Assembly: GCA_039714275.1 (NCBI GenBank)
Contig: JBDLJO010000001.1
Location: 1 to 59,369, forward strand
Direction: 5' to 3'
Length of the DNA stretch: 59,369 nt
Origin: Chloroflexota bacterium
Lineage (GTDB): Bacteria > Chloroflexota > Anaerolineae > Anaerolineales > UBA11858
This document shows, piece by piece, positions 32,688 through 35,813 of the stretch; positions within the stretch are counted from its first letter, which is position 1; every line of letters begins with the position of its first letter. Under the pieces are notes generated by a model that worked only from the letters and a program-made list of their open reading frames with translations, was not told the origin of the DNA and did not search any database. Position numbers and translations under genes: made by a program.

Positions 32688-35600
32688 CTACAGTGCGATT
32701 ATCTTTTTAGGGAACCGGCGAAGTACACTTGCTGCGCTTGGCATAGTAATACGATCACCAGAGCGAAGCTCTGCCGGCGCCTTATTGGGTTTGTCAGACG
32801 CACCTTGGAAGATATAAATTTTTGTGCCTTCTTTGGCATGCTTCAAAGCAACAAATGCCTGTCCTAGCAAGAATCCTTCGCTATCTGCAGCACAACTTGT
32901 CACCTCTCCGATTACACGGCCGTTAGCATCCATAACGGGATCTCCAGGATGCGCCATTCGTACACGTTTTTTATCAAAGCGGAAACGGACAACAACGCCT
33001 TTGCGCTTTACCTCACGAGCCAGGTAAGCATCGCGTCCAATGAACCAGGGTTTATATGTTTTCACATATGAACCAAACCCTGCTTCGGCAACGCCATTAT
33101 TCAAATCACCGCCCATTTCATGACCATATAAAGGTAATCCCGCCTCTGTGCGCAGCGAATCACGCGCTCCTAAACCAACGGGAACTAAACCAAATGGTTT
33201 GCCAACTTCAAGCAATTTTTTGAATAAATCTTGCGCTTTATCAGGATGTACGAATAATTCAAAAGCCATTTTTTCGCCGGTATAACCCGTGCGGGAAACG
33301 ATCAAGTCGAATCCACCCACTACAGCATCACAGAGCTGTGTGCGTTTTAGTTTCATAATGCGCTTTCGAGTTATATCATCAACGCCCAAAGCCAAAAGGA
33401 TTTCACGTGAGCGCGGACCTTGTAATGGTAGGTCAACGCGCATATCGGCACCTTCTTTAGGATCGCGCAAATTCCTCAAAATTACGTTTCGGCCAAAGGC
33501 ACGAGCCCATGGGTGTTCATTATCTACTTTGACTTGACCTTCCCGAACAGCATTTAGCCAAGTCCAATCCTTATCATCGTTGGAAGCATTGACTACAACA
33601 AGATATTTCTGCTCCGCGCGACAATATACTAAAAGATCATCAATAACGTTTGCATCGGGAGTCAGGAAATGTGTGTAGAGAGATTCCCCTACATCTAATG
33701 AGTTGATATCATTACTGCAAACGCTATCCAGGAAAGATGCTGCGTCTGGTCCTTCCGCTTGATAGACGCCCATATGGGCAGCATCGAACAGCCCAGCAGC
33801 TCGACGAACGGCTAAATGCTCATCCATCACCGAACCGTAACGAACGGGCATTTCCCATCCAGCAAAGGGCACCATGCGTCCACCCAACTCAACATGCAAA
33901 TCATAAATCGGTGTACGTTGAATTTGTGCATCTTCTTCTTCCCATGCATAGTCAGGTAAAGGTTCTCCTGATCCCTCAGAAATACCGATAAAATACGGTT
34001 TCGTTCCTTCGGGAACCTCTATATTCTTTATTGGCGTCTCGTCCGCTGTATGTGGTATAGATTTCACCCAAACAGGTCCCGGCACCTTACGCAGCAAATC
34101 ATCATCAACACGCACATAGCCATCAGAGAGATCTCTCAACCAGGCAGATGCAAGACCAGCCTGAGTGCTTGAAACTGCAAGACGGAACAGATGTGTCCCC
34201 ACACAAGTAAGCGTGGCATCTACCTCGCCTTGAGGGGTAAAAAAGCGTGTCGGTTGTGATTCTCCATCGGCAAGAGATTCCACATCGCTGGCAAAAACAA
34301 CATTAAGGAATTGTCTGATGCGTGCACCGCCCAATTCAAAGGCTGCTGCATCACCTGAGTATTGATCATCCATATAATAAAAATGTGGATAACTATGGTC
34401 ACCAGGCTCAAAATCAATCCCTGCACCAGTAGCCAATTCTCGCACTTTTAGCTTTGCATTCTGGAAAGCAGAAAAATCGACCTTGGCACGTAAAGCTTTC
34501 CCTTGATAGTAGGGTGTAGCAGCCTGAAGAATATCAGCAATAGCATCAGCAAGAGCGATGGATTCATCTTCTTTAAACCCGCGTTGTGTAACCCAGGGCA
34601 TACCCATACGAACACCTGAAGGTTTAAGTGCAGAGCGATCACCAGGAATCGTATTACGATTGGTAGTTATGCCTGCTAAGTCGAGTAATCTAGCAGCCAA
34701 ATCCCCACTTAGCGTTGCACCATCATCGCCCTTTATAGACTTTGTGTCCAGATTCATCAAATGCGTATTAGTCCCACCAAAGGGGATTGTAAATCCACGC
34801 TCAGCAAGGCGATCCGTAAATACGGCACAATTTTTTACTACTTGCGTTTGCAGTTCACGGAATTGTTCGGTTTGTGAGATTTTAAATGCCAGGGCCATAG
34901 CTGCAAAGACATTAACATGTGGACCACCCTGCTCACCAGGAAATACGGCTCTATCAATCTTTCGAGCTAATAACCGGTTAGTAGTCATAATAATTGCACC
35001 GCGCGGTCCATTTAGGGTCTTATGTGTGGTGGATGTAACCACGTCTGCAATACCGATTGGCGAAGGATAAATACCTGCAGCAACAAGACCAGCCACGTGA
35101 GCAATATCAGTTAGCAAGTAGGCGTCAACTTTATCAGCAATTTCGCGGAACCGAGCCCAATTAATTTGCCAGGGATATGAAGATACCCCTGCAATGATCA
35201 TCCGAGGTTTATGCTCAAGAGCCAATGCTTCAACATCATCGTAATCGATTTTCTCAGTATCAGCATTAATGGAGTAAGACACGATATTGTAATATTTACC
35301 CGATCTATTTACCGGTGATCCGTGTGAAAGGTGACCTCCAAAAAGCAAATCCATGCCCATGACGGTATCACCCGGTTTAACCAAAGCGTGATAAACAGCA
35401 TTATTTGCTGGCCCCCCCGAGAGAGCCTGAACATTTACGTAAATCTCATCAGCGTTGACATCATTAGCAGCAAAGGTTTCTGCGCATCGCCGGCGTGCCA
35501 GCGCTTCAACTACATTTGCATATTCCACACCTTTATAATATCGAGGATCGGAATATCTACGATCTTCCGCAAGTCGATTATCATAATCTAATATTTCATC

Positions 35601-35813
35601 TTCGTTGAGAAACCTAGTATATTCCGAGGGATAACCTTCGGCATAAACATTGTGGAATGCAGTGGAAAGGGCTTCACGAACAGCTAGTGGGGATGTGCTT
35701 TCACTTGGTATGAGGATCAGTTTACGATATTGTCGTTCCGCTTCAATTTCAGTTAATTCAGCAAGTTTGGGGTCTAAATCAGTTAGTTTGCCGCGGAAAA
35801 GAAAGTCAGCCAT
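32688..35813 (-). CDS. glyA-gcvT: fusion protein: serine hydroxymethyltransferase (N-terminal), partial GcvT-like repeat, and full aminomethyltransferase GcvT (C-terminal)
   Basis: Residues 1-460 are SHMT ([26 protein letters not shown], PLP site [14 protein letters not shown]). Residues 631-1041 are GcvT ([75 protein letters not shown]). One uninterrupted 1041-codon ORF. Confidence 0.9.
   Translation of the reverse strand: [1041 protein letters not shown]

Follow-up and report, generated by a model that had tools for sequence, protein, structure and literature searches.

A natural fusion of serine hydroxymethyltransferase and glycine-cleavage T protein with a T-like middle module, and its place beside a T-less glycine-cleavage operon in Anaerolineae

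Glycine cleavage and serine hydroxymethyltransferase (SHMT) interconvert glycine, serine and one-carbon (C1) units through a shared and labile intermediate, 5,10-methylene-tetrahydrofolate (methylene-THF; THF, tetrahydrofolate), and the pair is central to photorespiration, to the fermentation of purines and glycine, and to the reductive glycine pathway, which is being engineered for formate and CO2 assimilation. In the photorespiration of plant mitochondria, glycine decarboxylase and SHMT run 2 Gly -> Ser + CO2 + NH3, and the catabolic direction from glycine to serine is also that of purine-fermenting clostridia. Polypeptides that combine folate reactions are known: for dihydrofolate reductase–thymidylate synthase (DHFR-TS) and formiminotransferase-cyclodeaminase channelling has been proposed, the folate product of one site being the substrate of the other, and in dimethylglycine oxidase (DMGO) an internal channel carries the C1 intermediate. 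Considered here is a gene in a 59,369-nucleotide stretch of DNA from a Chloroflexota bacterium (contig JBDLJO010000001.1 of assembly GCA_039714275.1; the whole stretch is called the window below), in which one open reading frame (ORF) joins SHMT to the glycine-cleavage T protein, GcvT.

The architecture of the family to which this protein belongs is SHMT–T'–T, T' being a T-like region between the two enzymes, since long forms of the protein carry nearly the whole of a second T-like domain at that position. The protein is likely to be a three-module bifunctional folate enzyme which, in Anaerolineae, would be the T component for a neighbouring operon that encodes the H and P proteins and lacks a T gene. 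In architecture it comes closest to proteins in which a T-fold folate domain is joined to a flavoenzyme (dimethylglycine oxidase/dehydrogenase, DMGO/DMGDH, and the alpha subunit of sarcosine oxidase) and to trimethylamine N-oxide (TMAO) demethylase (1pj5, 4pab, 2gag, 9q5a), each with a GcvT-fold THF module fused to a C1 enzyme. In those proteins the partner makes the iminium or formaldehyde that the T-fold captures, whereas here the SHMT partner shares a cofactor-bound C1 unit; unlike the flavoenzyme fusions the window protein has no flavin domain, both its partners being folate enzymes with what looks like a decayed duplicate of one of them in between. By analogy, the nearest conceptual precedents would be protozoan DHFR-TS and formiminotransferase-cyclodeaminase, which likewise place two consecutive folate reactions on one polypeptide, though their enzymes are unrelated to those of the window protein. 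Compared with plant glycine decarboxylase and SHMT the net chemistry would be the same, carried out by separate proteins in plants and by covalently linked T and SHMT here. The fusion is not new to databases, where it is already widespread and automatically annotated, and no account of it appears to exist in the literature that can be searched; what is added is the SHMT–T'–T architecture together with the conserved operon context.

That the gene is real, and is one gene, is settled by its recurrence. An earlier sequence-only reading of this DNA had described a single 1041-codon SHMT–T protein ORF, leaving its strand unstated. Translation and domain scans with Pfam and NCBIfam bear that description out, and every peptide motif it quoted, including the one with the lysine that binds pyridoxal phosphate (PLP; K265) and SRTGYTGE, is found in the translation. 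The gene sits on the minus strand, the plus-strand reading being ruled out by the many stops with which that frame is riddled. Both halves of the two-part architecture proposed earlier stand, the N-terminal 460 aa with SHMT hallmarks (PF00464, the NCBIfam model NF000586 and all checked active-site residues agree) and the C-terminal 410 aa as a complete aminomethyltransferase (the gcvT equivalog TIGR00528, alignments to structures in the Protein Data Bank, PDB, and the cloverleaf fold agree), but the T-like region at aa ~465-630 had been overlooked. The domain scan suggested at that time yields PF00464 and PF01571, with the C-terminal barrel (GCV_T_C, aa 942-1001) below threshold at 20.5 bits against a cut-off of 25.9, and the suggested database search finds the same fusion in several phyla.

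The window protein is 100% identical to a deposited protein (P0001) of a Chloroflexota bacterium metagenome-assembled genome (MAG), named 'GcvT'. Full-length homologues of 1034-1064 aa at 66-88% identity make up more than 120 clusters from NCBI, JGI, ENA and Logan assemblies. A HMMER scan that covered 1.8 billion cluster representatives exhaustively added 68 representatives, full-length and 36-62% identical, in each of which the SHMT, middle and T modules are present (the conservation counts given below are for 69 sequences reaching down to 36% identity). In a species-level survey, with one genome per species and motifs unique to the junction as query (WLRDLSDG[YF], R[AT]KVDF...), the fusion was confirmed in at least 573 species genomes, the best 80 of which are nearly all labelled Chloroflexota (Anaerolineae, Anaerolineales or 'Chloroflexia'). 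It is carried by cultured isolates, among them Bellilinea caldifistulae GOMI-1, Longilinea arvoryzae KOME-1, Thermanaerothrix solaris and T. daxensis, and is found on closed chromosomes too. Because the uninterrupted fusion recurs across the clusters, the distant representatives and the species genomes, an assembly artefact is excluded as its source. The wider suspicion, that an error of assembly, a frameshift or gene calling has joined two genes, could point to the window being a metagenome-assembled contig and to one metagenomic relative (L083) with an in-frame stop in the middle region and two genes called. Against it stand the same open frame, found across hundreds of independent assemblies, in isolates and in closed chromosomes, the 170 junction residues that are themselves conserved and folded, and the fact that L083 differs by one stop codon in an otherwise collinear frame; it is effectively refuted, and its probability is close to nil. 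The stop in L083 (at ~2280-2290, RAKVDFEVL*NEKLK) is a candidate sequencing error, pseudogene or natural split, and it is the reason why separate SHMT and T'-T genes are called there. Stand-alone close relatives, SHMT-only or T-only, were sought and set aside: five of ten short representatives checked group with full-length fusions, and the SHMT-only call of L083 reflects that one stop inside a collinear gene rather than a stand-alone SHMT.

A short form (~1035-1060 aa) is seen in Anaerolineae, and long forms of 1200-1340 aa bear the names Chloroflexi/Anaerolineae, Candidatus Aerophobetes, Candidatus Poribacteria and Candidatus Eremiobacteraeota. A member from a Planctomycetota MAG (P0398) reaches 1765 aa, with ~550 extra C-terminal residues that have no Pfam match. 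The long-form fusion also occurs on 3-5-Mb contigs labelled Thermoplasmata or Methanomassiliicoccales (L086, which is CP070751.1 of 5.16 Mb, and P0378); these labels are doubtful, the neighbouring genes being bacterial-looking. In the locus L018 (8666-11797 and 15583-18708), and likewise in L019, both of Anaerolineae/Anaerolineaceae, two intact SHMT–T'–T paralogues lie 4 kb apart and are ~65% identical, with catalytic residues complete in both copies. Annotation pipelines name the family either 'GcvT' or 'serine hydroxymethyltransferase', and one record is named 'glycine/serine hydroxymethyltransferase/glycine cleavage system aminomethyltransferase T'.

The N-terminal module is by sequence and fold a fold-type I PLP enzyme of the SHMT family. 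PF00464 matches aa 87-423 in two stretches (E 2e-124, 415 bits against a cut-off of 27), NF000586 gives 436 bits against 335, and matches to SHMT structures run down to E 1e-104, at ~40% identity to known SHMTs; the fold is confirmed by Foldseek TM-scores of ~0.8 against many SHMT structures. In the alignment to the E. coli enzyme (1dfo), Y55, E57, Y65, H126, D200 and H203 correspond to Y57, E59, Y93, H161, D236 and H239 of the window protein, and T226, H228, K229, R235 and R363 to T262, H264, K265, R271 and R402. Those checked in alignment A1 (K265, T262, H264, H161, D236, R402, Y57, E59, Y93) are invariant in it. They cover the Schiff-base lysine with its T-x-T-T-H-K surroundings, the His that stacks on PLP, the Asp that contacts the pyridine N, the Arg for the carboxylate of the substrate, and the Tyr and Glu of the YAEGYP...RYY loop. 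The module thus shares with stand-alone SHMT (GlyA; 1dfo, 5vmb, 2dkj) the fold and the active-site and THF- and carboxylate-binding residues, and is predicted to be catalytically intact. It differs from stand-alone SHMT in a 28-residue insertion within the active-site loop between EGYP and RYY (present in 67 of the 69 family members and absent from crystallised SHMTs), in a C-terminal extension (aa 432-463, a beta-hairpin plus helix in the AlphaFold2 model), and in the ~575 further residues with T-fold modules.

The C-terminal module is matched by PF01571 at aa 637-905 (E 7.5e-77, 258 bits) and passes TIGR00528 with 262.3 bits (cut-off 235.85). It aligns end to end with the T proteins of B. 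subtilis, T. maritima and E. coli (PDB 1yx2, 1woo, 3a8i), and its model superposes on 1yx2 and 1wos over ~400 columns as a three-domain cloverleaf (TM-score 0.85-0.88, rmsd 2.9-3.5 Å by Foldseek). The position of E. coli D97, presumably catalytic (PDB lists 3a8k as an ETD97N-EHred mutant complex), is D725 here and is D in 66/69 members; N742, GYTGE (G843-E847) and GARDSLRTE (G882-E890) are retained, and the motifs GYTGE and GARDxLRxE, which with D97 we take to be the defining features of T proteins, are conserved in 66-68 of the sequences. In fold, in this Asp and in both motifs it is like stand-alone GcvT (1yx2, 1woo, 3a8i), and it too is predicted to be catalytically intact. It differs from stand-alone GcvT in being fused to SHMT, in an insertion of 20-27 residues (~aa 766-792) after 'VKVDNE', past the first half of the folate domain, and in that its gene is outside the gcv operon and not under the glycine riboswitch.

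Could this module be a T-fold THF enzyme for some other substrate, of the DmdA, LigM, sarcosine or dimethylglycine type, that feeds methylene-THF to the SHMT? The GcvT fold family has many such enzymes, which are recovered here as weaker matches; the insertion just described is absent from crystallised T proteins; NF001567 misses its cut-off (284 bits, with 300 required); and long-form members without gcv neighbours exist. However, the gcvT equivalog is passed, the top structural matches are true T proteins (E 6e-66) with TMAO demethylase at 1e-29 at best and other demethylases at 1e-14 or worse, and no other T gene is found in the neighbouring gcvH-PA-PB operons, so that a different substrate is improbable.

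Each outer module is, as judged from sequence, modelled fold and gene neighbourhood, an ordinary member of its family. Since the catalytic residues of both are kept in 63-69 of the 69 sequences (cofactor residues included), both enzymes are under purifying selection. The same counts bear on whether one outer enzyme might be a pseudo-enzyme scaffold, for instance an SHMT retained as a dimerisation platform for T: T' already shows that catalytic motifs have been lost within this family, but the checked catalytic and cofactor residues of both outer modules are kept to that extent, and both paralogues of L018 and of L019 have theirs, which makes a scaffold very improbable.

The middle module is what distinguishes the family from a simple two-enzyme fusion. 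Taken alone, T' has a weak Pfam match to GCV_T (E 7e-4, profile positions 51-131, below the cut-off). A profile of the middle region compared by hhalign with the T module of the same protein (aa 683-766) gives a probability of 92% and E 7.5e-7. Two other identities were tried and rejected: that the region belongs to SHMT (hhalign probability 0.4%), and that it is a lipoyl or H-like domain or another Pfam family (GCV_T is the sole match at E<=10). In the AlphaFold2 model T' has a predicted local distance difference test score (pLDDT) of 84-94 and the strand and helix order of T-protein domain 2. The isolated model, when run through Foldseek, has as its top 35 PDB matches GcvT-family folds without exception (T proteins, sarcosine oxidase, DMGDH, YgfZ, DmdA, LigM) over ~100 columns, with an rmsd of 2.1-2.7 Å to the best T-protein structures.

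In the long forms the middle region matches nearly the whole T folate-binding domain (positions 1-300 of the profile hidden Markov model, 59-100 bits), a homology seen by tblastn as well (E 8.5e-40). In the window protein the region between domain 2 of T' and KPYFIG is deleted and only domain 2 survives; in the long-form alignment KPYFIG, in the linker, corresponds to the KPWFIGR that closes the T folate-binding domain. Sequence and model comparison together indicate that T' is a decayed tandem duplicate of T, cut down to domain 2 in the window's lineage. A functional second T protein would show both the catalytic Asp and GYTGE, and T' does not: the Asp position is Ala in the window protein (aa 533) and Asp in 32 of 69 sequences, and GYTGE is gone from T' in all six long forms inspected, several of whose T' copies retain the D97-equivalent Asp. 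T' is therefore probably non-catalytic, a structural bridge or docking module between the enzymes; it may bridge the SHMT and T modules or dock the H protein. Its core motif W-L-x-x-L-S-D-G-Y is conserved in 61-67/69 sequences, and it is from this conservation that T' is argued to retain some role.

The linker that follows has low conservation and indels in alignment A1 and a pLDDT of ~60-75. On these features could be founded a plainer view of the whole protein, in which the fusion secures co-expression and stoichiometry and nothing else (a 'Rosetta-stone' fusion), methylene-THF exchanges with the bulk, and the middle module is a leftover spacer. The linker is indeed long, variable and poorly ordered, middle module and linker together span 173 to 445 residues in different family members, and the window's lineage has a shortened middle module, as would be expected of a dispensable part. 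A passive spacer, however, would not need a core (W..LSDGY, with G529) that 54-67 of 69 sequences, 36-62% identical overall, have in common, nor does co-expression by itself sit easily with a fusion retained across several phyla and duplicated as a unit in L018 and L019. Such a purely organisational fusion is quite possible, if not the favoured account.

The favoured account, a bifunctional enzyme that is also the T component of the local cleavage system, draws on the gene neighbourhood. The fusion lies within 3.5 kb of a gcvH-gcvPA-gcvPB operon, in convergent orientation. Neither Pfam nor NCBIfam finds gcvT in this window operon, and a tblastn search of the whole 59-kb window turns up no further SHMT- or T-like sequence. 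Among related loci, read as ~20 kb per genome, a T-less gcvH-PA-PB operon is likewise convergent to the fusion in the 14 whose fetched flanks reach gcvPB, and a separate gcvT is found in none of the 14 within those flanks; the absence of gcvT from the riboswitch-controlled operon, pointed out in the sequence-only reading, thus extends to related Anaerolineae. On this sequence evidence it is most likely, in Anaerolineae, the fusion that supplies the neighbouring H and P (PA/PB) proteins with their T component.

The two transcription units appear to be regulated separately: a glycine riboswitch aptamer stands before gcvH only, and the fusion has a putative promoter of its own. The same single aptamer is found upstream of gcvH in the relatives L037, L064 and L077. 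No second, tandem glycine aptamer before gcvH is found at E<=1, a single aptamer (~180 nt from the gcvH start) being a departure from the common tandem form. Upstream of the fusion neither a riboswitch nor any other known RNA is found in the window at E<=1, nor is a known RNA found there at the gathering threshold in 7 related loci. The gene is preceded by a short hairpin and T-run after the hydrolase gene before it and then by a promoter-like site, TTGACC-17 nt-TACAAT, the best sigma-70-like consensus match in a 5-kb scan, which would imply a 5' untranslated region of only ~55 nt. Of the earlier statement that the fusion has its own, constitutive-looking promoter and no aptamer, the aptamer's absence and the promoter-like site hold up, and 'constitutive' reflects the consensus match. 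The arrangement is explicable because SHMT is a housekeeping enzyme needed constantly for C1 supply, for which a promoter free of the riboswitch would be expected.

A working scheme can be drawn from these parts. High glycine would switch on H and P through the riboswitch; P would load the aminomethyl group onto lipoyl-H; the T module would pass the carbon to THF, giving 5,10-methylene-THF and NH3; and the SHMT module of the same polypeptide would make serine from methylene-THF and another molecule of glycine, regenerating THF. The net reaction, 2 Gly -> Ser + CO2 + NH3 + 2[H], would be reversible. The fusion would fix a 1:1 stoichiometry and bring the producer and consumer of labile methylene-THF, and the recycled THF, next to each other, and flux through glycine cleavage would be gated via H and P with the fusion expressed independently. 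If the SHMT module dimerises as fold-type I SHMTs do, the particle would be T2-SHMT2, and the holoenzyme would therefore carry two copies of every module. The catabolic direction from glycine to serine fits the glycine-ON logic and the xanthine-dehydrogenase-family cluster upstream; the argument is a weak one because linkage to that cluster is found in a minority of relatives only. Kinetic channelling of 5,10-methylene-THF might be inferred from the fusion.

A more ambitious proposal is that SHMT–T'–T is the core of a 'glycine-to-serine synthase', in which the SHMT dimer would hold two T modules, methylene-THF (or its polyglutamate tail) would be handed over directly and escape mixing with the bulk pool, and T', conserved in its W..LSDGY motif though probably no longer catalytic, would have acquired a new role, such as lipoyl-H docking, holding of the folate tail or setting the geometry between sites. 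This is rather unlikely.

Several points weigh against the bifunctional enzyme with T function for the local operon, or limit how far it reaches. Methylene-THF has to leave one site and then bind the other, and with flux in the direction from serine to C1 units THF would be consumed by both modules, leaving the fusion nothing to channel. The synteny link to the cleavage system holds only for Anaerolineae, because gcv genes are absent within 10 kb of the fusion in long-form Eremiobacterota, in Aerophobetes and in the Thermoplasmata-labelled 5-Mb MAG. Separate glyA or gcvT copies may lie beyond the ~20 kb read per genome. Little is known of promoters in this phylum, and the one called here is a match to a consensus. 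No paper found in the full-text literature, in a search that did not extend to subscription-only papers, deals with a natural fusion of SHMT to GcvT. Sequence and fold searches return no solved structure of a fused protein.

Immediately downstream of the fusion, on the same strand, is an aminotransferase gene, and in Anaerolineae the two probably form a two-gene operon with the fusion first: of 74 related genomes with enough flank, 53 have the two side by side on one strand, and the median gap is 88 nt (tblastn). The aminotransferase matches 1x0m, 3aov, 1wst and 2egy (E ~1e-108 to 1e-114), closest to it being P. horikoshii PH0207, the T. profundus multiple-substrate aminotransferase and T. thermophilus LysN; the T. 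litoralis alanine:glyoxylate transaminase 2zc0 is more distant (4e-64). A role in converting glyoxylate to glycine is conceivable by analogy, since that T. litoralis family member is an alanine:glyoxylate transaminase. The same partner was looked for outside Chloroflexota, where the aminotransferase beside the Aerophobetes fusion turned out not to be a close homologue.

The gcv operon has a fourth gene, adjoining gcvPB in 13 of the 14 related loci, and the order gcvH-gcvPA-gcvPB-fourth gene recurs in related loci and in the closed genome CP070639.1. Its product combines a threonyl-tRNA synthetase (ThrRS)-like N-terminus (TGS plus an editing-domain-like part, aa 28-230) with a uridine-kinase-like P-loop domain (aa 316-514); the NCBIfam udk match is under its cut-off. 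The ThrRS editing domain is a Ser-tRNA-Thr deacylase, and it is curious to find an editing domain of this type among glycine/serine genes in one operon.

Directly upstream of the fusion is the xanthine-dehydrogenase-family cluster, with two large subunits that bind molybdenum cofactor (MoCo), FAD and 2Fe-2S subunits and XdhC, and an amidohydrolase further on. It may be a catabolic locus for purines or N-heterocycles that feeds glycine. The arrangement DUF6909-MoCo-(hydrolase) upstream of the fusion occurs in a subset of relatives only (e.g. L004, L008, L010, L077). A further group of genes is related to coenzyme F420 and comprises a luciferase-like monooxygenase, a CofC-like guanylyltransferase, F420-0:gamma-glutamyl ligase and an F420-dependent NADP oxidoreductase.

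Table 1. Positions in the window of the fusion gene, its modules and signals, and its neighbours.
Feature	Position	Strand	Remarks
Whole fusion ORF	32688..35813	-	1041 codons + stop, ATG start; SHMT – T' relic – linker – GcvT
SHMT module, aa 1-~465	34419..35813	-	Fold-type I PLP domain + C-terminal extension
Insertion of 28 residues, aa 63-90, SHMT active-site loop between EGYP and RYY	35544..35627	-	Gap relative to 1dfo, 5vmb
Codon of PLP-binding lysine K265 (E. coli K229)	35019..35021	-	1dfo alignment; K in 68/69
Predicted T' relic, aa 489-586	34056..34349	-	Degenerate copy of T-protein domain 2, beta-alpha-beta-beta-beta-alpha-beta
Linker, aa 587-630	33924..34055	-	Variable, poorly ordered, bears conserved KPYFIG
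T-protein module, aa 631-1041	32691..33923	-	Folate-binding domains + C-terminal barrel; complete, aa ~631-1036
Codon of D725 (equivalent of E. coli D97, first D of VIDDL)	33639..33641	-	3a8i/1vlo alignment
Shine-Dalgarno AGGAG	35820..35824	-	6 nt before fusion ATG; read from sequence
Promoter-like site TTGACC-17 nt-TACAAT	35877..35905	-	64 nt upstream of ATG; 10/12 positions
Glycine riboswitch aptamer RF00504	25712..25817	+	56.5 bits; single, before gcvH
gcvH	25997-26383	+	Pfam, NCBIfam
gcvPA	26418-27785	+	Pfam, NCBIfam
gcvPB	27742-29274	+	Pfam, NCBIfam
Fourth gcv-operon gene, 584 aa	29450..31204	+	Pfam TGS, PRK; PDB matches to ThrRS N-terminus + Udk
Class I/II aminotransferase, LysN / KAT-II / multiple-substrate family	31409..32647	-	PF00155; 41 nt downstream of fusion
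Xanthine-dehydrogenase-family cluster	36847-49638 and 57855-59231	-	Directly upstream of fusion
DUF6909	39061-40767		In xanthine-dehydrogenase-family cluster
EamA/PUNUT-like transporter	40942-41754		In xanthine-dehydrogenase-family cluster
Coenzyme F420-related cluster	54084-57755	-	

For the reading of genomes the consequence is immediate: as the protein is named either GcvT or SHMT, pathway reconstruction in Anaerolineae is liable to report an absence of glyA or gcvT that is not real. For enzyme evolution, the vestigial T' is a clear case of domain duplication followed by decay within a multidomain enzyme, and the fusion is a place to learn how a T protein can function tethered to a dimeric partner. 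A natural fusion in cultured Anaerolineae and in other phyla is a system in which the kinetic advantage of physical coupling can be tested, and a compact two-in-one part for pathway engineering. If the synthase proposal were true, it would offer a natural example, open to experiment, of channelling from glycine cleavage to SHMT and back.

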